59,938 nucleotides of DNA, taken from a virus (lineage: Duplodnaviria > Caudoviricetes). The notes below the pieces were generated by a model. It was not told where the DNA came from and did no database searches. It saw nothing but the letters and a program-made list of their open reading frames with translations. A program made the position numbers and the translations under genes. This document shows, one piece after another, positions 2,004-52,690 of this stretch; positions within the stretch are counted from its first letter, which is position 1; each line of letters opens with the position of its first letter. The DNA is taken from IMG/VR virus record IMGVR_UViG_3300044970_000300, positions 1 to 59,938 of that record. One strand, 5' to 3'.

Positions 2004-5000
2004 ATGAAGTTTTTATCTCAGATTAACGTCAACACGGAATACACCCTGCCGTTCGTTGATGGCAACAATGGGCAAGTATTGACGACTGACGGCCAAGGTG
2101 CTGTCTATTGGGGTAATGTAAGCGCAGGTTCTACAAGTCTTGATGGGCTAACTGACGTTGAGATTACGTCACCGCAGGCTGGCCAGATACTTAACTATAG
2201 TGTGCCGTTGGGTGGCACCGTACCAGTGTGGAGGAACATTACGTCTCCGTACGCCACGATAGCCTCTCCCGCATTCACTGGGATTCCGACGGCCCCCACC
2301 GCACCGACTGGTACTGATAGTACGCAAATCGCAACTACTGCGTTCGTAAAGGCTCAGGGATACCTATCATCAGCCTCATCAATCAACGACCTTAGTGATG
2401 TAACTATTTCAACGGTCACCACTGGGCAGATTCTGCAATGGAGTGGGACTCAGTGGGTGAATGCCACGCTGTCTACCGTTGATTACGTGTCTAAGGTTCA
2501 GCACCTCGTTAAGTGTGGTGTTGCCGTAGCCAAGGGTCAGGCGGTCTATGTTACTAGCGCTGACGGCACGAATATGATTGTCGGCCTTGCGTCTAACGCT
2601 AGTGAGGCCACATCATCTAAGGTTATCGGATTGGCCGTATCTACGGGTGCTATCAACGACCAAATCTTCGTTGTTACCGAAGGTCTAATCGCTGGCCTGA
2701 ATACGTCTACGGCAACCGCTGGTGACCCAGTATGGCTCGGAACTGGAGGCAATCTAATCTTTGGACTGCTTAACAAGCCAGTAGCACCAGCCCACTTGGT
2801 TTACTTAGGTGTTGTAACTCGTGTTCAGCAGAACAACGGAGAAATCTTCGTCAACGTACAGAACGGATTTGAGCTCAACGAGCTTCACGATGTGCTCATC
2901 AACGGAGTATCTACGGGACAGCTTCTTCGTAGAGACTCAGACGGCCTGTGGAAGAACTGGAGTCCTAATTTCTTGACGAGCTACACGGAAACTGATACGC
3001 TACAGACCGTAACCACACGTGGTGCAACAACCAACCTAGCAATTAGCGCAAACGGGGTAACGTCTCCGAACCTTACGTCTACTGCGTTGATGATTATCAA
3101 TGCTGACAGTAGCGGTTCGTTGCAGCCAGACCAAGGAAGCCCAGCCAATAAGATTCTGTCTTTTAGATGGCAGGCTAACGAGTACGGATACATCGACACT
3201 GACGGAAAGGTAACGCTTAACGGATTCAAGACTCCGACTGGCACGTCATCGCAGTTCCTTAAGGCTAATGGAACCGTTGATTCAAACACTTACCTGACCA
3301 CTACGGCCGCCGCTGGAACGTACACTACGTACGATTATGTAGATGATGAGATTTCTTCGGTAAATACTTACGTGGCTAACAACTTCGTTCCGAAGACCCG
3401 CACGCTCACCATCAACGGAACGTCTTACGACCTAAGTGCTAATAGGTCGTGGACCATTACTACTACTGACTCAACTAAGGTATCTAAGGCTGGTGAGAGC
3501 CACGACACGGTAGAGCCAAACAATCTAGGGGCTGGGGATGGAGGATTCTATACAGTAAAGAACGGTTTTGGGCCGAGCGGTGGTAATGATGCTTTGATTC
3601 ATATCCCATACTCTAATAGTTTATGGGCGCACCAATTAGCATTTGATTGGGCCCTTGGCAACGACCAGGATATGTGGTTCCGCACAAAGAATAATGGAAC
3701 CTGGCAGGGATGGAGAAAGGTATGGCACGACGGTAACTTTACCGACAACAGCACGAACTGGAATACAGCCTATAACGATAGAATCACGGCTGCTGCTGTA
3801 TCAGGAACTGGCACTAAGACGCTTACGCTCACTCAGGGAGACGGTGGAACTGTTACTGCTACGTGGACCGATTACGATACGGATAACGACGCTCAGACGA
3901 TTTCATATAGTTCTGGCACTAATGAATTGTCTATATCAAACGGAAACAGCATCACGCTTGACGGACTGGCTACTGAGGATTACGTATTGAGTCAAGGGTT
4001 TACCACCTTCCAACCTTGGAACTCTGGAACTGGGAGTATCAATTACACCGCTGGAAACGTAGGTGTTGGAACCGCCCTTCCAACCAAAAAACTACACGTA
4101 GTATCTGGAGACAATGAGGGGATATTTATGCAGGGCTCTACTAATGGAGGGCATTGGTTTGACTTTAAGTCTGCGAATTCCAACCACTGGTCAATGGGAG
4201 CACAGCCAGGGCTTATGGGGTGGTACAACCGTACTGATTCAACCTATAAAGTGGTTATTTCAGATGGTGGAAATGTCGGCATTAACACAACGAATCCAGG
4301 GGCTAAACTTCACGTAGTAGGAAACACATATATTCAATCAGGTGTTTTATTTGTAGACACTATTGCTGGTTATGCTACAAACTTAGTTTCAATAGCTGCC
4401 AATACAAACTTTACGGTTCCTTCTGGAATAATCACCGTAGCTAAAGACCTTGGTACAAATGATTACGCCAATGTCGGTCAGCACAATATGCAACTCCGAA
4501 TCAGGAAGTCATCACTGGATGGCGGCTGCGCTCCACGCTCACTAGAACTCGGCGTTCTTGATAATGGAACTGGTATCATTCAGGCTAACCATTGTGGGAT
4601 AGGATACAACACGCTTTCACTAAACCCAGTTGCTGGTTCTGTCTTAATAAACGGACAAACAGCTTGGCACGCTGGCAATGATGGCGCTGGTTCTGGGCTT
4701 GATGCTGATTTGCTTGATGGACAACACGGTTCATATTATGCTTCCGCATCTTCATTAGGTAGCTATCTCCCGCTAAGTGGCGGAACAATGACTGGCGACT
4801 TGACGCTAAAGTATAGCACTGCGGATTCTAGCGACTATAATGGTTTAATGTTTGCGCCATATAGCGATGCTGCAGGATTAAACGATTATATCATTAAGGC
4901 TGCTTCAGATAGAGGTGTATTTGGTCGAAAGTCTTTCGGATGGCACGTTCATACGGAGTCAGCATTTGGAGTATACTCAAACGGTTGGGAGAAACTATTT

Positions 5001-5343: not shown

Positions 5344-8300
5344 ATGGCAAATCTTTTAAGTACCACTGTAAATGGTCAGTTGAATACTGGAAACGTAATT
5401 GACCTTGGATATACGGTTAATGGTTCTATTGCAACCACCGCATTCCGTGGTATTAACTTTCATTCATTTGGCGACCTAAACTATTACATTGGTAAGCCAT
5501 CAGGAGCCTGGACTCAGCCATTGCATATCCACTTCTATACTGGCATTTGGATTCGTTCACATCATTCTTATGGTGGAACTAGATTTTACAACATTGCCAC
5601 TGGAAGTAATTTGATGTCTATTGGAGATGGTGCAGACAATATCAATGTTTATGCTAAGATAACTAGCAGTATTACTAGCGGAACTGTTTTATCTCACGGC
5701 TCAATGGATGATGCTATCGGGTGGAATAGCAGTTACGGTACTTACATTGGCTCTACGGTAGGAGGAACATCTTACTTGTACGCTAACGGAACACTTTATA
5801 CTGGCGGCGCCTACAGAACTCTTATCCACTCTGGTAACATCGGAAGTCAGTCTGTAAGTTACGCAACTACAGCTAACGTCGCTAATTTCTTCGGAGGATT
5901 TACAGCCTATGGCCTAGTAGAGGAAGCTCGTGGTGTTCACTCTGCGAGTGATTTTCCAAATGGAACTCTTGTTACCACAGACATTCAATCGAATGAGTGG
6001 GCTGGAGATTCATTTGTTATGGAGGTTTCAGGTAAGAGCTATGGTTCTGGAACTCCGTTCAAGCTTGCAATGGAGGGCTACTTATACGCTGATACGATAA
6101 TCAACGTATCTGCTATGTCATACGGTTCATACTTCCCTGCTCCAGTGAAAGTAATGAATCTCGATGGCACCCTTGCGTTCTGGTGGCCTCGTGGTTCGTA
6201 TTGGAACTCATTCCAAGTCCACGTTAGAGCCGCTGGTGGAGAATCTTGGAATCGTGTGACAGGCATAAGTGATTCCGTAGACCCACCATCAGCAACTAAA
6301 AAGATTTCTATTACTCCAGTACAAGTAATCCACACGAACAATATCGGCTCTCAGTCGGTAAGCTATGCAACGAGTGCTGGAGACGCTTCAACCCTTGGGG
6401 GTTTTGGTCGAGGAAATACAACTAACAAGGTTGCATACTTTGATGGCAGTAGAAACCTTTTTGTAAACAATCCAGAATCATACTCTGGTGAGGTTAGGCT
6501 TGGTGCGGCTTGGGGCCGTGGTGGTGTTTACGCATCTAGTACGTTGAGTCTGTCAACAAGCGGAACAGAAACTCATTTTGTATTTAACAATTCCGTTCCA
6601 ATCATTGCATACAGCAATGGACAAATAGACCTTGGTAGTTCAACCAACACTCCGATAAACATAACTGGAGGCGCTCACAAGTACATAACCATCAATCCTG
6701 GGAATGGATGGGAGGCTATGGTTCGTTATGTTGGCGGCTCTGGTTCTTCTTGGTACGTTGGAAAGAGAATGACATCTCAAGTTGTAGGAACTGAATCATT
6801 TCACTTCTATTCTGAAGCAGCTTCTCAGACAGTTGGCGGCATAGACACTAGTGGAAATATGATTGTCACTGGCTCAATGCGTGCTCCAATTTTTTACGAC
6901 TCTAATGATACTACATACTTCCTTGACCCAAATGGAAGTATATCTGGTATTTTCGCTGGAAGTGTAGGAATAAATAACACTTCACCCATTAACACTGCTT
7001 GGGGTAGTGCCTCCACAACAAAGCAATTGTCGATTGACGGAACTAACTATGCTGTAATAAACCTTTTAGGTGGCTCTAGAAGATTTTCTATGGGTGTTGG
7101 CGACGCACAGTTCTATATGTGTTATGACAACACGGCAGGCCGACACAACATTATTGTAAATAGTAGCGGTAGTGTTAGCATACCTGTTGATGTTAGGTCT
7201 CCAATCTTCTACGATTCTGCTGATACCAACTACTACGTAGACCCAAATAGCAACTCAAAACTTGTTAATCTCGGACTTGGTGGTGCGACTCCAGACCTTA
7301 GACTTAGCGTGTCTGGAGACATACATATGGATGGTTACATCTATCAAGGTGGTACTGCTGGTGTTGTAAATAGCTGGGGCTCTAGAACGCTTGTTAGTAG
7401 TGGCAACTATGTGTCAAACGCAAGGTCTTTTGCTTTCAACAATGTCGGTTATGGTTCGTCTTGGACGTTTGCTATTGCGTCCGATGGGGCAGTAACAACA
7501 AACAGACACATTGATGCAAACACCACTTGGACAAATAGTGCAACTACTCTCTTCCTTGGATGGTACGGTGGTAAGGTTGTAATTGGAAATAATAACAATG
7601 GCAATCACGATGCTGCGGCAGCACTTGGGGGTAATACTGTTATATCTACGAATCCACTGTATGCTCCAATTATTTACGACTTAAATGATACTGGATACTA
7701 CGGAAACTTTGCTGGTTTCTCTAGAATGTCAGAGGTTGGTACTACTAATCAATATGTATACAACTACGACAGTGTAGATTCTGGAAGAGCAGTTAACGAA
7801 TTTGGACACGTAGGAAAGTATGTTTCAACACAATCAGCATCTACGAACTACATCCCGTTCTCTTTTGAGAACAGATATGGAAACCACTCTTGGGGACACG
7901 TAGCACGTTTCCACATTAGCTCTGGAAGCGGAACTGACAGACCATCGATTCAGTTTTCTAGTGGATACAATAATACCAGATGGAGTGTTGGATACTGTAG
8001 TGGTACCGATGACAACTTTAGAATTACCCAAAATATGGGTATGCGACCAGATAACTCTGGAAACCACGATGAGTGGGGAACTGAGCGTTTTAGAATAAAT
8101 ACGGACGGTAGCATCTATATTTCTTCTTCTTTACAGGCGTATTCTTATCAGGGTCACTCTAACGTGGCTGGGACTGGTAATGCCTCATATCACCCATCTG
8201 GTATCTATTCAACTGGAACAAACTGGTTGTACGGAACTATGTATATGAATAACAATAGTATACGTGACGTACAAGAGATATACAATAATGGATGGTTTAG

Positions 8301-12855: not shown

Positions 12856-12963
12856 ATCTTTTAATTGTTTATTTACCCAAATATACGAAATAGTTTTCAA
12901 TTCTGCAAACTTTTGCGCGAAATAGTATAGATAATTTTGTAAGGAACTTTAATTCAACCTATT

Positions 12964-32546: not shown

Positions 32547-32554
32547 ATTTGCTT

Positions 32555-32977
32555 ATGTTCAACAAGTTATGTTTGATTTGTCTATCAGTCCTCTTGCTCA
32601 GTGGATGCTCAGCAGAATGGCACCTAAAGAAGGCCATCCAGAAGGACCCCTCGATGTTGAAGCCCACGGTTGTTACGATATGGGATACGATTGTGACTCC
32701 GCCGATTTATGTGGTTGATACCGTAGGCATCCCAGCCGAGGGAGACTCTTCAGTGATTGACAACGACACCGTGCAGGTGGTCATCACTAAGTTTCAAGAC
32801 AAACTCATCGTAAAGACTAAGGTCAAGGAGGTTCCGTACCCAGTATCTGTACAGGCCGAGTGCCCGCCTCAGGTTGTACAACCCGAAGGTAAAGGCTCCA
32901 AGATTAAGGACTTCCTGTTGATTTTCTTGTCGCTATCCCTAGCGATTATGATGTTCATCTATAGATTCGGTAAGTAA
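32555..32977 (+). CDS. lipoprotein with C-terminal TM helix, candidate unimolecular spanin
   Basis: Lipobox LSGC, beta-rich middle, C-terminal FLLIFLSLSLAIMMFIY. Confidence 0.6.
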   Translation: MFNKLCLICLSVLLLSGCSAEWHLKKAIQKDPSMLKPTVVTIWDTIVTPPIYVVDTVGIPAEGDSSVIDNDTVQVVITKFQDKLIVKTKVKEVPYPVSVQAECPPQVVQPEGKGSKIKDFLLIFLSLSLAIMMFIYRFGK

Positions 32978-47319: not shown

Positions 47320-47868
47320 TTAAAAAACATCGCGCAGACCATCACGTTCGATGACCTCGCGAAGTTTGGTTTCATAGTGTACATCCTCAGCGTATCGGCT
47401 CAGTAGCGCGAAGAATTCGTCCTCCGTGCGGCAGACGCTCGCATAGGTAGCACACCAATACGCGTAGTCGAGGACGCTGTCCTCCCACGTAGAGTAGTAG
47501 GCGTGACCTCTAGACGTTCCCGCCGCGAGGTTGACACGCACACGTGCTTGCTTCATACCGAACAGGTTGTTGTTCTCAGTGAAGATGGACGAACTATAGT
47601 TCGCGCTCTCCAATTTTGCCTGAGCCAACGCAATGTGCGGATACTTAATGTTCAACCGCTTGAATGTCTCAATCAGTCGTTGCTCCGTGAATGCGGCATC
47701 GGTCACGTTCACGTTGAGTATGCTCTCGTAGAGCCTCTCGTCTGCGTTTTGGACTCCGTAGAGACCGAACCCGACCAAGGTAGCCGCCGTAGCCATAGCC
47801 ACAGCGACACCCTTGGTGGATACTATCGGTTTGAACACTAGGTGTTCCCTGTCATACTTGTACAACAT
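47320..47868 (-). CDS. membrane-anchored GH73 glucosaminidase
   Basis: AQA.LES, NNLFGMK and YAED..Y motifs; N-terminal TM. Confidence 0.85.
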   Translation of the reverse strand: MLYKYDREHLVFKPIVSTKGVAVAMATAATLVGFGLYGVQNADERLYESILNVNVTDAAFTEQRLIETFKRLNIKYPHIALAQAKLESANYSSSIFTENNNLFGMKQARVRVNLAAGTSRGHAYYSTWEDSVLDYAYWCATYASVCRTEDEFFALLSRYAEDVHYETKLREVIERDGLRDVF

Positions 47869-47871
47869 AGC

Positions 47872-48654
47872 CTACCATATTCCGTCCTCGTCCAACGTGT
47901 CGCGTAGGTATTCGCTACGCAGTTCGTGCTTGCTTGCATTCCATTTGTACGACGGCTCGTCATCGAAGTCATCGAGGAAGTCCGTGTACTTAGGTGCCTT
48001 AGGGATAGCAACCTTGCGCTCGCTGTCCCAAATGGTAGGCTGAGTCACGGCGTTGGCGTATGAGCCTGTCTTGTACACCTTCTTGCTACCTGCCCATACG
48101 TAGTCGTTTACACGCTTGTACGAGTCGTTGCTGAACCAATTTCCGTCGACATCGTAGTGACCTAGTTGGTCGTTGAGGATACGTACCTCACCGCGCCAAT
48201 CAAGGAACGCTACTTTGTTGTGGGAACCGATGATTGTCAGAGCCATAGCACGGATGCCCGCGTGGTCGAGGAAGTCGACGTTGTCAGGGTAGAACTTGCC
48301 TAGCATCTGAGCGAACTCACGAGTGTCGCTGACCTTGTGGTCACCTAGACCCGAGATGACTCCGTTGTGAATCAGTGATACACGACCCTCGGTCACGCTG
48401 TGCGGATGGAGCATATCCTTGCCCTTGCCGTGCGTTGCGATGCGGAAGTGAATCAAGATGGGAGTGTCGGTGAGTTCACGTATGAACTCGTACTCCTCAA
48501 AGAAGTCATCGAAGTTGTAGCCCTCGTGGTAGGTCATCACCTTGCCGTTGTCGACGTAGGCGATGCCTGCTCCGTGGTTGTTATTATCCCAAGCATTCTT
48601 GAGTTGTTTCTTGGTGAGAAAAGAGTTCGGTTGATTTACGATTGCGATACACAT
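47872..48654 (-). CDS. class II (Ntn) glutamine amidotransferase
   Basis: N-terminal MC, N.HGAG, HFRIATHG, HP, HNGVI and SDT motifs. Confidence 0.88.
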   Translation of the reverse strand: MCIAIVNQPNSFLTKKQLKNAWDNNNHGAGIAYVDNGKVMTYHEGYNFDDFFEEYEFIRELTDTPILIHFRIATHGKGKDMLHPHSVTEGRVSLIHNGVISGLGDHKVSDTREFAQMLGKFYPDNVDFLDHAGIRAMALTIIGSHNKVAFLDWRGEVRILNDQLGHYDVDGNWFSNDSYKRVNDYVWAGSKKVYKTGSYANAVTQPTIWDSERKVAIPKAPKYTDFLDDFDDEPSYKWNASKHELRSEYLRDTLDEDGIW

Positions 48655-49236: not shown

Positions 49237-49629
49237 TTATTGAATGGTGAACCAATCCTCGTCCATATTGAACTCGTCGATTTGCGCTTGCGTTACGAAC
49301 GCCTCGCAGTACCACGAGCCTTCATCGTTGTCGAAGTTTTCGTCGGCCGTTACGATTGTATCTAGTAGCGTCTCCCACTCTCGAACGAAGTCGGCTACGT
49401 CTGAGTCGTTTCCATCGAAGTATGTCCACACACGAAGTAAGTCTTCCTGTTTCGTGTCTTCGGTTGAGGTCACCTCTACGTCTACACCTGTAGGGTCGCA
49501 GAGGTTTTTGATAGTTTTTCGGCTGTAAGCCTTTTCGTACGCAATTTCCTTGGCCTTATCGTAATCCTCTGCTTGGATAATAAAGTCTTCGGAGTTGGTG
49601 ATTGTAATGGTGAATTTGTAAGAGTTCAT
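49237..49629 (-). CDS. acidic hypothetical protein
   Basis: ORF starting just downstream of hammerhead 1. Confidence 0.6.
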   Translation of the reverse strand: MNSYKFTITITNSEDFIIQAEDYDKAKEIAYEKAYSRKTIKNLCDPTGVDVEVTSTEDTKQEDLLRVWTYFDGNDSDVADFVREWETLLDTIVTADENFDNDEGSWYCEAFVTQAQIDEFNMDEDWFTIQ

Positions 49630-49644
49630 CTTAAAGTTTTTTAT

Positions 49645-49694
49645 GGTTAAGACGCCTCACGGCGTTTCGTCTACTAAAGCCTCGTCAGTTAACC
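49645..49694 (-). ncRNA. type I hammerhead ribozyme 1
   Basis: GGUUAA CUGACGA GGCU-UUAGU-AGAC GAAA CGCC-GUGA-GGCG UC^UUAACC; one mismatch in stem II. Confidence 0.85.
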
Positions 49695-49889
49695 TTGCTC
49701 GTTTATGTACTGCGTCAGCACCTCGTCAGCCGCATTCAAATTTTCCTCGAGTTCGAGGGACTGCCGCTCGATTATGTCGAACGCAATCAGTTTGTAGCGC
49801 TCGTCTTCGTCGGTGGCTTCTATGAACCTAGACACACTACTCAGGTAGTTCTCATAGGCTCTCATCATTTGCTTTAGTTCGTGTTTCAT
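49689..49889 (-). CDS. hypothetical helical protein (66 aa)
   Basis: Start MKHELKQ; the stop codon lies in hammerhead stem I. Confidence 0.55.
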   Translation of the reverse strand: MKHELKQMMRAYENYLSSVSRFIEATDEDERYKLIAFDIIERQSLELEENLNAADEVLTQYINEQG

Positions 49890-49891
49890 TT

Positions 49892-49908
49892 CGTTTCGTG
49901 ATAGTGGA
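49892..49908 (-). repeat. 17-bp repeat copy B
   Basis: Identical to 47301-47317. Confidence 0.75.
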
Positions 49909-49971
49909 AAGAAAGGCCGCGCCGTACCGCGACCTGTCGTTTTAACCACACCCTTGTACGGAGGGGACATC

Positions 49972-51480
49972 TTACGCTTGGCCGATAGCCTTGCGGATAG
50001 TGTGTGAACCGAACTTCGACTCTACCGCACGGCTAGTGAAGTTCTGAACGCTAGCGTAGGCACGCTTCATTCGCTCCAAGGTGCGGTCGTAGTTGTCGCT
50101 GTTGGCTAGGAACTCGGTAGGTGACTGACCTTCCAAGCATCCACCGAATACGTAAACCAAGGCTTGCTTGCGTGCAAGTTTTTCGGCGCTGTATTGTGAG
50201 CGGAGTAACTTGTTCAGTTTTTTGTCGCTGAACATTGCATCTGCAACCTCGGTGAACTTAGTGTACGTTCCGTTGTCGATTTGCTTTACAATCCACTGCA
50301 CTAGTTTAGTGCGGAACTTGATTGACTCGAGCGTTGATACCGCGCTGAAGATGCGAAGTTCAACCGCGTCCTTCGGTAGTGTGCCGAAGTTGCAGTTGTA
50401 GATTGCCCTGCGGCTACCGCGCTTCATCTCGTCCTTGTTTTGGATGCCGCCGTAATCGGTGCTGAGGCGGCCTTCGTACAGGCTGAAAAGTAGCGGGATA
50501 AACGGAGCCAACTTGTCAATCAGGTCAACTGCGGTTACACCTCGACGGCTGATTGTGATGTGCCCACCACAGCGACGTGAGTAACCCGAATTCATAACCC
50601 AATCGAGTCGGTCGAACTCGTCGAACATCGTCTTCGTGTCGAGTAGGTTAAATACAGGAGACACAGCCTCGAAACCTGTGCGGCTGTCGAGCGATGAGTC
50701 ACGCTCAACAATCCATCCGTTGCCTAGGTTTGAACTAGCCCAAGCACAGCGGTTGCGTGCCTCGCGGTCTTCTTTCTCAACCTCGAAGCCTACGAACCAA
50801 TCAACACTTGCGTCGTTTAGGACGCTTTTGCTGCGTGACGTAAGGTGGTAACCTCCCAACGATGGTGCGTCTCCGTAACGACGGCCGACTTCGGCGTTCT
50901 CGAAGATTGCCGTGCGTCCCTCCCACTCACCAACAACCAAGTCGTTGTCGCTACGACGGATTTGGCTTAGGTACTCGTGGCGGTATTGGTCGTGCAGTCG
51001 AATCTCCTGAGAGGCGAAGTTTGCACCGAACAGCGGGTACTCGGATGTGCGGTAATCGGTGAACGCACACAGGTCGGTGGTGTATAATTGGCCGTCGATA
51101 ACAACGCAAACGAAGTTGGTTGGGTATTCGGTCATAGGCACAGCCTCGAACGTAGCGTCGCTGAGTTCAAGGTGCGGGAAGCCCTCGAGTCGGAGCGGGT
51201 TACGCTGTCCGCTAGTGTGGCGGTAGTAGATGTTTGCCTCAGTGCGGAGCGCACCGATGGTGATAAACATTGACTCGTGACAGCGCATATTGACATCAAT
51301 TCCGTACGCTGCTGCGTCGAGCGCCATAGGGAACAAGGTTTGCTTGGTGGTTCCGTCGCTAGCGATGTACCTGTAGCGGAAATAATCGTTGTTGACTCCG
51401 AAGTAGAAGTCGAACTGAGCGTTGTGGTATGCTCGGTGAAGTTCAATCTTGCGGCCTGATACGATGTTGGTGACTTTCAT
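49972..51480 (-). CDS. putative COOH-NH2 amidoligase (Amidoligase_2-like C-terminal domain)
   Basis: GFEVE, DSSL...GFE.VSP, CGGHI and VELR motifs. Confidence 0.75.
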   Translation of the reverse strand: MKVTNIVSGRKIELHRAYHNAQFDFYFGVNNDYFRYRYIASDGTTKQTLFPMALDAAAYGIDVNMRCHESMFITIGALRTEANIYYRHTSGQRNPLRLEGFPHLELSDATFEAVPMTEYPTNFVCVVIDGQLYTTDLCAFTDYRTSEYPLFGANFASQEIRLHDQYRHEYLSQIRRSDNDLVVGEWEGRTAIFENAEVGRRYGDAPSLGGYHLTSRSKSVLNDASVDWFVGFEVEKEDREARNRCAWASSNLGNGWIVERDSSLDSRTGFEAVSPVFNLLDTKTMFDEFDRLDWVMNSGYSRRCGGHITISRRGVTAVDLIDKLAPFIPLLFSLYEGRLSTDYGGIQNKDEMKRGSRRAIYNCNFGTLPKDAVELRIFSAVSTLESIKFRTKLVQWIVKQIDNGTYTKFTEVADAMFSDKKLNKLLRSQYSAEKLARKQALVYVFGGCLEGQSPTEFLANSDNYDRTLERMKRAYASVQNFTSRAVESKFGSHTIRKAIGQA

Positions 51481-51506
51481 AACTGAAAAGAATTAAGTTT
51501 TGTAAT

Positions 51507-51560
51507 GGTTAAGACGAGGACGAATCCTCGTTTCGGCTACTAAAGCCTCGTCAGTTAACC
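51507..51560 (-). ncRNA. type I hammerhead ribozyme 2
   Basis: GGUUAA CUGACGA GGCU-UUAGU-AGCC GAAA CGAGGA-UUCG-UCCUCG UC^UUAACC; all three stems perfect. Confidence 0.92.
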
Positions 51561-51565
51561 TTTAT

Positions 51566-51664
51566 TTATTCGAGGTTGCTTTCATACTTGTAGATGCGAT
51601 AGTAGACATACGCTACAACTGCGGCTCCTATAAGCATCTGAATGAGTTCGAAAAAACTTTCCAT
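51566..51664 (-). CDS. small single-TM peptide (32 aa)
   Basis: MESFFELIQMLIGAAVVAYVYYRIYKYESNLE; A-rich leader. Confidence 0.55.
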   Translation of the reverse strand: MESFFELIQMLIGAAVVAYVYYRIYKYESNLE

Positions 51665-51694
51665 AATTGTTGTGGTTTTAAGTGGTTGAATTTT

Positions 51695-52348
51695 GACTGC
51701 CGTAGGGACTCGAACCCTATGCCTTGCGGCACTCCAAGCGGCAGTTATTGCCTTGAACAGGCGAACCTTTTTGGCGGCGTTGTTGCTCGCAACATCTACC
51801 GCATACGCTGTTAGTTCCTCCACGACTGCTATCCTTTGGCGGCGCTTTTTACGCACCGCATACGCTGTCTTTCGCTGTCGTTTGTTCTCGGCTTGTTTTG
51901 ACTTGATTTGCTTGGGTGTTCTTGCGGTGTTCATTGGCCTCCCCCCAACCGCCTGAAACCTTTGCGCCACGGCGCTTCGTTTTCGTTTGTCTGAGGCTTG
52001 ATTTCTTACGGCCGCCATACTTGGCCTTGCTCGTCTCGTCTACCTGCCCTCGTTACTTTCGGTCGGATTGTGCTAGCCTACTTACGCTACTCACTTGGAT
52101 TACATCACCTACTCAATCAGACCTGACCTGCTACTCCGCTCCCTAACGCCCGACAGCCTGTAGGCCGTGGCCTACTGACTGAATCGTACAGGGTTCACAA
52201 GGTGGGTTTCCGATTTTTGGGAGGCGCTTTCGCTAACATCTCTCCGCCTATCGTCACTATGGGACTTTATTTAGAAACACCTCGTATTCGACCTAGCGGC
52301 CGCCGCGTTTTGTGTTTCAGAATTTTAAAGAGCGTTTGTCTTTCGACT
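51695..52348 (-). ncRNA. large structured early leader/ncRNA
   Basis: No credible ORF; many helices and GNRA loops; starts after a complete promoter. Confidence 0.5.
51696..51745 (-). ncRNA. mini tRNA-like structure
   Basis: 7-bp acceptor-like stem, canonical T arm TAGGG-TTCGAGT-CCCTA, GCAA hairpin in place of the anticodon arm. Confidence 0.65.
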
Positions 52349-52351
52349 CCA

Positions 52352-52382
52352 CAAACATACGACGACTTTGCACATCTGCAAA
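52352..52382 (-). promoter_or_regulatory. early promoter TTTGCA-N17-TATGTTTG
   Basis: Bacteroidota -33/-7 consensus at the head of the minus-strand early region. Confidence 0.75.
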
Positions 52383-52437: not shown

Positions 52438-52690
52438 TAACTGCTTGATAATCAGCACACAAAAAAAAGTTTACTAGGGGGTGAAATTTAGAATCGTTCT
52501 AAATAAAAGTGACTGAAAATCAACAACTTAGTAATCCATTGAAAATCAGATAGTTACTAACTGCCTAAAACTCAGCAAGTTACAACGTACTGAAACACAG
52601 CGAGTTAACGTAACTACCTGATAATCAGCGACATTTAAGAAATCATATGCACAGGATTACGACCCGAACCGCTTGACAACCAACGACTTA
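52438..52690. repeat. array of IHF-box-like degenerate repeats
   Basis: WATCARnnnnTTA-like units, four of them spaced 26, 26 and 25 bp apart. Confidence 0.6.

Follow-up and report, generated by a model that had tools for sequence, protein, structure and literature searches.

Several hammerhead ribozymes flank single genes in prophages, and Perreault et al. (2011, PLoS Comput Biol, PMC3088659; this and the other articles referred to by PMC number are cited from the available part of their text) proposed that they cut transcripts into single-gene mRNAs. In that work, all ribozymes of three tandem prophage arrangements cleaved in vitro, and in vivo cleavage was seen for one. Successive cleavage and ligation was considered there as a route to spliced or circular products, which, as far as the available text goes, were undetected. 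In the available part of a 2019 review (PMC6765202), the purpose of the hundreds of bacterial and phage hammerheads was still undefined. Here we describe two hammerhead ribozymes, HH1 and HH2, on the minus strand of a double-stranded DNA (dsDNA) phage genome, IMG/VR record IMGVR_UViG_3300044970_000300. The window analyzed was this entire virus record of 59,938 bp, estimated to be 98% complete. The two ribozymes bracket a cassette carrying an amidoligase-like gene and probably cut the early transcript between cistrons.

Other described systems share part of this arrangement. The HHphage ribozyme of haloviruses HF1 and HF2 (in PMC3088659) also belongs to a dsDNA virus and lies 13 nt upstream of an early-gene start codon, with a mapped transcript 5′ end near the cut site, but it is a structural-variant hammerhead, present in single copy in an archaeal virus. 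Retrozymes and viroid-like circular RNAs (PMC4918200, PMC7229834, PMC7761336) have tandem type I hammerheads and rejoinable ends. They differ in being eukaryotic, mostly non-coding RNAs of 170-1100 nt with long repeats, with replication at the RNA level or retrotransposition, and with circles that have been detected. The present locus, in contrast, is a 1.86-kb protein-coding cassette of a dsDNA phage with repeats of 34 and 24 nt, and any circle from it is hypothetical. In a 2026 paper (PMC13725137), type I hammerheads just upstream of open reading frames (ORFs) were reported from RNA viruses of fungi and plants and linked to translation initiation. A literature search that covered few subscription journals and no supplements found no functional test of tandem phage hammerheads after 2011 and no account of tRNA-like punctuation in phage operons.

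The closest likeness is to the clusters of Perreault et al. (PMC3088659), where phage DNA likewise has two or more intergenic hammerheads on the coding strand around one gene or a short run of genes, and the flanked genes vary. Those clusters are in prophages of Clostridium scindens, Azorhizobium caulinodans and Agrobacterium tumefaciens, whereas the present virus is an uncultivated 60-kb virus, probably with a Bacteroidota host. The ribozymes here also differ in forming a compact, uniform subclass with a 6-bp open stem I and an overlapping stop codon, accompanied by a tRNA-like element and a large, apparently structured RNA. The supplementary alignments and figures of that paper may already list members of this subclass.

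The two ribozymes and their parts were as follows.

51560 to 51507, minus strand: HH1, type I hammerhead (supported by pattern, fold and class covariance model)
51560 to 51555, minus strand: HH1 stem I, 5′ strand
51554 to 51548, minus strand: HH1 core CUGACGA
51547 to 51535, minus strand: HH1 stem II hairpin
51534 to 51532, minus strand: HH1 GAA
51531 to 51514, minus strand: HH1 stem III hairpin, including A15.1 and U16.1
51513, minus strand: HH1 C17, with the predicted cut at 51513/51512
51512 to 51507, minus strand: HH1 stem I, 3′ strand
49694 to 49645, minus strand: HH2, type I hammerhead (supported by pattern and class covariance model), with C17 at 49651 and the predicted cut at 49651/49650

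Read on the minus strand, with the cut after C17, HH1 is GGUUAA / CUGACGA / GGCU-UUAGU-AGCC / GAA / A-CGAGGA-UUCG-UCCUCG-U / C17 / UUAACC and HH2 is GGUUAA / CUGACGA / GGCU-UUAGU-AGAC / GAA / A-CGCC-GUGA-GGCG-U / C17 / UUAACC. Both copies carried a complete type I core (CUGACGA ... GAA, A15.1-U16.1 and C17), with U1.1-A2.1 and G10.1-C11.1 intact. In both, stems II and III were closed by loops and stem I was open. Stems I, II and III were 6, 4 and 7 bp long in HH1 and 6, 4 (with one G.A mismatch) and 5 bp long in HH2. Stem I, the core and loop II (UUAGU) were common to the two copies, and the stem III sequences differed. These features agree with the initial annotation, which had described two minus-strand type I hammerheads with a shared core and stem I and different stem III sequences; sequence, pattern and covariance model all confirmed this description.

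The combined hammerhead pattern had two matches in the window, compared with 0.00 expected from 100 shuffles, and a chance origin of the two matches is excluded. A covariance model built from 47 members of the class described below, with both window sites included in its seed, scored HH1 and HH2 at 71.1 and 71.0 bits, while the next-best match in the window scored 10.2 bits. By the pattern and this model, HH1 and HH2 were the only two hammerheads in the 59.9-kb record. The minimum-energy fold of HH1 was the hammerhead (z = -2.98, with none of 200 shuffles as good). By their core, their topology and the covariation among homologues, both elements are genuine hammerheads.

Similar ribozymes were found in many other phages. 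A first scan of public virus contigs, which required UUAA in stem I, gave at least 117 loci, at least 43 of which had at least one element passing a strict structural descriptor. Counts from here on for the descriptor and for the second scan are among the matches listed. The descriptor had 76 matches in 1.14 Mb of loci and none in the same sequences reversed. A second scan, in which stem I was left free beyond its first base, gave at least 171 unique ribozymes, 166 of them usable for placement. Stem I was exactly 6 bp in 155 of the 171, and its commonest sequence, GGUUAA, accounted for just 23 of them. In an alignment of 47 class members, whose rows were chosen by a descriptor demanding pairing, 99.6% of cells were paired, compared with 24-40% when the partner column was slid. 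Two-sided changes were seen in 12 of 15 pairs, all three stems covaried, and none of 500 shuffles reached the covariation score.

The core was almost invariant. Single-position variants with otherwise intact stems were found three times at U4 (all U4 to C) and never at C3, G5, A6, G8 or A9, against 190 unique wild-type cores. An A flanked stem I on its 5′ side in 160 of 166 cases and on its 3′ side in 142 of 166. The last base of loop II and the first base 3′ of stem I were U:A in 124 cases, G:A in 11, A:U in 11 and A:A in 1; each U at the 3′ flank among the cases with a 13-nt stem II paired with a loop A. This covariation suggests a tertiary contact like those to which natural hammerheads owe their speed. 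Tested class members scored 22.7-30.2 bits with the Rfam model RF00163 (Hammerhead_1), which has the same core and open-stem-I topology, and none reached its gathering score of 34 bits. They are therefore missed by routine Rfam annotation.

The placement of these ribozymes relative to ORFs was also regular. An ORF starting with ATG was present within 80 nt past the cut in 161 of 166 cases (median 26 nt, interquartile range 22-32). In 145 of 166, an ORF of 40 codons or more lay upstream, with its stop codon at -40 to +13 nt of the ribozyme 5′ edge. Stop offsets peaked at 0/+1, at +6 (a UAA ending stem I) and at +10 (a UGA in the CUGA of the core). This layout points to defined mRNAs with short leaders. 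The corresponding features of the window were as follows.

49651 to 51512, minus strand: predicted doubly cut RNA of 1862 nt (length computed from the predicted cuts)
49972 to 51480, minus strand: ORF of 502 amino acids (aa), with its ATG 32 nt past the HH1 cut
49914 to 49935, minus strand: terminator-like element (GC-rich hairpin, then a U-rich tract) separating the 502-aa and 66-aa ORFs
49689 to 49889, minus strand: 66-aa ORF inside the bracketed unit
49237 to 49629, minus strand: 130-aa ORF, with its ATG 21 nt past the HH2 cut

HH1 and HH2 fitted the class, with leaders of 32 and 21 nt and stop offsets of -5 and +6. The leaders past the predicted cuts were short, A-rich and unstructured. 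The TAA stop of the 66-aa ORF (49691-49689) is formed by the last three bases of the 5′ strand of HH2 stem I. The coordinates confirmed that the two hammerheads bracket the 502-aa and 66-aa cassette on the coding strand, and recomputation gave the same cuts, the same 1862-nt fragment and the same two ORFs as had first been annotated.

Upstream of HH1, the minus strand carried four further elements.

52352 to 52382, minus strand: promoter-like TTTG-N19-TAnnTTTG, the only minus-strand match upstream of the early block
51750 to 52345 (ends approximate), minus strand: conserved region of about 600 nt, structured-RNA-like by conservation, indels and covariation
51696 to 51745, minus strand: tRNA-like element (acceptor stem of 7 bp, T arm, no proper D arm)
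51566 to 51664, minus strand: 32-aa hydrophobic ORF between the tRNA-like element and HH1

The order on the minus strand is thus promoter-like site, ~600-nt RNA, tRNA-like element, 32-aa ORF, HH1, 502-aa gene, terminator-like hairpin, 66-aa ORF, HH2 and 130-aa gene. The minus-strand block from about 52.3 to 33.8 kb includes genes for a ribonucleotide reductase, a primase-helicase-like protein and a PD-(D/E)XK nuclease. Judged by these genes for replication and nucleotide metabolism, it is an early or replication block.

We consider it probable that HH1 and HH2 are active hammerheads acting as punctuation between cistrons, which would cut the long minus-strand early transcript into separate messages. 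The sequences, the folds, the covariation and the position among the ORFs were observed; from them we infer cleavage, end chemistry and effects on stability and translation as follows. Transcription would start probably at the promoter-like site near 52.35 kb and run through the ~600-nt structured RNA and the tRNA-like element into the genes. Each ribozyme would fold during transcription and cut itself 3′ of C17. The upstream RNA would be left ending in the stem II and stem III hairpins with a 2′,3′-cyclic phosphate, while the downstream message would begin with a 5′-OH and a short leader, 32 nt for the 502-aa gene and 21 nt for the 130-aa gene. The stability and translation of each cistron could in this way be uncoupled from those of its neighbors, as by a natural ribozyme insulator. 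RiboJ-type synthetic insulators were engineered from a satellite-RNA ribozyme and are placed before the ribosome-binding region. The likeness most likely lies in self-cleavage setting the 5′ end and freeing the downstream gene from its upstream context; the difference is that the elements here are natural.

The single promoter match upstream on the minus strand supports this explanation. The proposal of the initial annotation, that the early transcript is cut into units, is a reasonable one, but this function had been proposed by Perreault et al. (2011, PMC3088659), so that the core of that inference is already in print. The locus alone leaves the picture unchanged, as one more ribozyme-bracketed gene. 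The comparative work sharpens the question of the role by defining a fixed layout: a stop codon overlapping the ribozyme, a 6-bp stem I, and an ATG about 26 nt past the cut.

For comparison, we collected as relatives 14 other virus contigs with an exact 22-mer of the ~600-nt RNA. Fourteen records, including the window, were informative, and one further record had too little sequence. The T arm of the tRNA-like element was always 424-429 nt past the 22-mer. A hammerhead was present between the tRNA-like element and the 502-aa gene in 7 of the 14 informative records and absent from the other 7. In the records without HH1, the 32-aa ORF was absent too and the 502-aa gene came directly after the tRNA-like element. 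In these records another RNA-processing signal, the tRNA-like element, directly precedes the gene, which we counted in favor of punctuation. We had considered that the tRNA-like element replaces HH1 in the relatives; this was dropped, as the alignment showed the element always there and the module of 32-aa ORF and HH1 either present or absent downstream of it. The first ribozyme after the 502-aa gene was found in all 8 records with enough sequence. The downstream ribozyme is therefore the conserved one, and the upstream one comes and goes with the small ORF. Conservation of the pair in related genomes, named at first as a check, accordingly held for the downstream member (8 of 8) and failed for the upstream member (missing from 7 of 14).

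In three of these eight records (L135, and L133 and L007, which are identical in sequence), the core of the downstream ribozyme was CCGANGA, with U4 changed to C. The hammerheads with this change were as follows.

L135:3752-3801 (= L006, about 5771-5820): hammerhead with U4 to C
L133 and L007 (about L007:5605-5654): hammerhead with U4 to C
L077, about 7281-7330: hammerhead with U4 to C

The three unique copies were otherwise intact and had three different, fully paired stem III sequences.

Several observations weigh against active punctuation at the two sites. In stem II of HH2 the second pair (10.2-11.2) was a G.A mismatch, which the initial annotation had overlooked; the full pairing of stem III that it reported was present in both copies. 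The minimum-energy fold of HH2 was not the hammerhead (z = -1.0, with 32 of 200 shuffles as good). Given the G.A mismatch in HH2 and the U4 change at equivalent positions in L135, L133 and their twin loci, cleavage by the downstream ribozyme may be slow, or this ribozyme may be in decay. No hammerhead model reached its gathering score in an Rfam scan of the window, where only tRNA did so. The only hammerhead match below threshold was that of RAGATH-1-hammerhead to HH1 (22.3 bits, E = 1.2; gathering score 56.3), and RF00163 matched neither window copy even at E <= 10. The search with hammerhead models suggested at the outset thus failed with the Rfam models, while the covariance model built from the class matched both sites strongly. 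HH1 is dispensable in 7 of the 14 informative records. Just two ribozymes are present in an early block of about 18 kb, so that punctuation by ribozymes is not general in this genome.

RNA data were also compared. Five riverine metatranscriptome runs matched the window as contigs, each with 5-9% of sampled words, and four were compared. The contigs of these four left 51362-51643 and 49576-49669 uncovered, including both cut sites and so both ends of the unit. The one joint listed among them was a diverged stretch within a single contig and not a head-to-tail junction. Two RNA contigs stopped near the 5′ edge of HH2 (49693 and 49685); they come from diverged strains and we drew no conclusion from them.

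The ribozymes might instead be markers or by-products of cassette mobility, that is, boundary sequences at which modules are gained, lost or exchanged, with little role in expression and with some copies decaying. The presence of the module of 32-aa ORF and HH1 in one half of the informative records and its absence from the other half, with a UUAACC-like sequence at both of its junctions, would be expected in such a case. So would the variable gene content between the ribozymes among the relatives, the stem II mismatch or U4 change in HH2 and its equivalents, and the varying genes flanked by the ribozymes reported by Perreault et al. (PMC3088659). Yet the core was almost perfectly kept, with 190 unique wild-type copies and changes only at U4 as described above, the stems covaried, and the rigid spacing to stop and start codons would be difficult to account for if the RNA were not under selection. 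We regard mobility as an improbable main explanation of these elements.

Another explanation is that the weakened ribozymes are tuned or conditional switches: HH2 and the U4-to-C forms would cut slowly or conditionally and so set the ratio of dicistronic to monocistronic messages or the timing of downstream expression. In support of this explanation, the weakening changes were found in otherwise well-kept ribozymes, as in the three U4-to-C copies with three fully paired stem III sequences, and HH1 was perfect. No ligand-binding or alternative-pairing element was identified in them, however, the competing folds are thermodynamic predictions only, and the sample of variants is small. We regard such a switch as improbable, and punctuation by plain self-cleavage as the better account of HH1 and HH2.

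The initial annotation had gone further and proposed that the doubly cut 1862-nt RNA rebuilds a nicked hammerhead, which would be sealed by the reverse chemistry or by host RtcB into a circular, exonuclease-resistant mRNA. By established hammerhead chemistry, this RNA would start with 5′-OH UUAACC, and its 3′ end, a 2′,3′-cyclic phosphate, would lie in the body of HH2. Its 5′ UUAACC and the GGUUAA of HH2 are fully complementary (6 of 6), stem I being identical in the two copies and stem III different, and re-formation of a nicked hammerhead from the ends is possible by sequence logic. Tandem type I hammerheads do yield circles in retrozymes (PMC4918200, PMC7229834).

A tendency to matching ends was also seen in the class, again among the matches listed. 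Of neighboring pairs on the same strand, 29 of 59 were end-compatible (17 of 34 when one pair was taken per locus), compared with 6.8% of 5000 random pairs from different loci. The likeness per position within a locus and between random pairs was 0.76 and 0.44 for stem I, 0.49 and 0.38 for stem II, and 0.67 and 0.48 for stem III. In 11 of the 59 pairs, stem I was the same but stems II and III were both different. Within a genome, neighbors tended either all to share stem I (for example L018, L022, L138 and L224) or all to differ (for example L013, L027, L057 and L159).

Against circles, the other 30 of the 59 neighboring pairs were end-incompatible, and 7 of 14 informative records lacked the upstream ribozyme, so that the 5′ end of the cassette would come there from the tRNA-like element. 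Enzymes that process tRNAs leave a 5′-phosphate, an end that the proposed joining could not use. Defects were present in the ribozymes at the downstream position, either the G.A mismatch or the U4 change, and the unit contains a conserved terminator-like hairpin. The only repeats in the unit, of 34 and 24 nt, were the ribozymes themselves, unlike the long terminal repeats of retrozymes. A search of the phage genome found no RtcB and no Rnl1-type or Rnl2-type ligase. For other prophage clusters, circular or spliced products were not detected by Perreault et al., according to the available text (PMC3088659). The likeness of stem I could also be explained by descent through duplication, together with the constraints that the stop codon and the leader place on stem I.

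The circular mRNA was thus not supported, and we think it very unlikely that this cassette is expressed in that form. We give equally little credence to the more general idea that the matching of stem I is selected and that the ends of excised cistrons religate into circular or re-joined, shuffled translatable mRNAs. Were it true, such mRNAs would arise in this dsDNA phage from the early transcript. The matching within genomes makes a concrete and testable case for searching a culturable phage-host pair for rejoined or circular RNAs.

The product of the bracketed 502-aa gene was compared with known families. The C-terminal half, at about residues 200-450, falls in a large, distantly Amidoligase_2-like family, and the protein had 573 homologues at E <= 0.001. 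It had no match to Pfam Amidoligase_2 (PF12224) at E <= 10. Of 10 homologues tested, 2 matched PF12224 above its cut-off of 22 bits (24.9 and 23.7 bits), and Amidoligase_2 clusters accounted for 27 of 30 named matches to the protein in the Atlas, which we took as a lead only. The amidoligase label given to it at first therefore stands through its homologues and not through a direct match, and "amidoligase-like" is a reasonable but indirect description. The terminator-like hairpin that follows this gene had a counterpart in L007, at an equivalent position but with another sequence; the z-scores of the folds were not significant.

The ~600-nt region at the head of the unit showed nucleotide conservation above that of the adjacent protein gene, and single-base indels. 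Compensatory changes were seen in 27 of 148 RNAalifold pairs in 8 sequences, and the region was partly covered by contigs from three of the four metatranscriptome runs. It matched no Rfam family, and a blastn search of GenBank phages in distant mode found no match for 51690-52360 and none for 49400-51800. The region looks like a large structured non-coding RNA heading the transcription unit. Because of a resemblance we had considered RNase P RNA; this was dropped, as there was no Rfam RNase P match and no partner strand was seen for the key helix.

In the tRNA-like element, the "anticodon" stem was of 5-6 bp with a loop of 3-4 nt and covaried among the relatives. The element scored 30.9 bits with the mascRNA-menRNA model, under its gathering score, and was not called by ARAGORN. 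It is probably a processing site for RNase P and RNase Z that would separate the ~600-nt RNA from the mRNAs. Other loci with hammerheads, among them L003 and L029, also had minihelices of an acceptor stem plus a T arm.

The promoter-like sequence TTTG-N15-23-TAnnTTTG had five matches in the window, compared with 1.15 expected.

52352 to 52382, minus strand: promoter-like match upstream of the early block
12878 to 12909, minus strand: promoter-like match, one of a divergent pair at 12.9 kb
12912 to 12939, plus strand: promoter-like match, the other of this pair
32548 to 32575, plus strand: promoter-like match
4378 to 4408, minus strand: promoter-like match

We take TTTG-N-TAnnTTTG to be the promoter consensus of Bacteroidota. 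As read from the sequence, the genes of the window lack Shine-Dalgarno sequences before their starts. Together with a BT4734-like primase domain, the promoter-like matches and this lack suggest a Bacteroidota host.

Further upstream, in an ORF-poor stretch at about 52440-52660 on the minus strand, there were several copies of about 18 nt like CUGAUUAUCARGYAGUUA, which are candidates for iterons or operator sites. The minus strand also encodes, a few genes past the amidoligase-like gene, a 260-aa protein (47872-48654) with a weak glutamine-amidotransferase match (19.8 bits, below the cut-off) and a 182-aa glucosaminidase-type endolysin (47320-47868).

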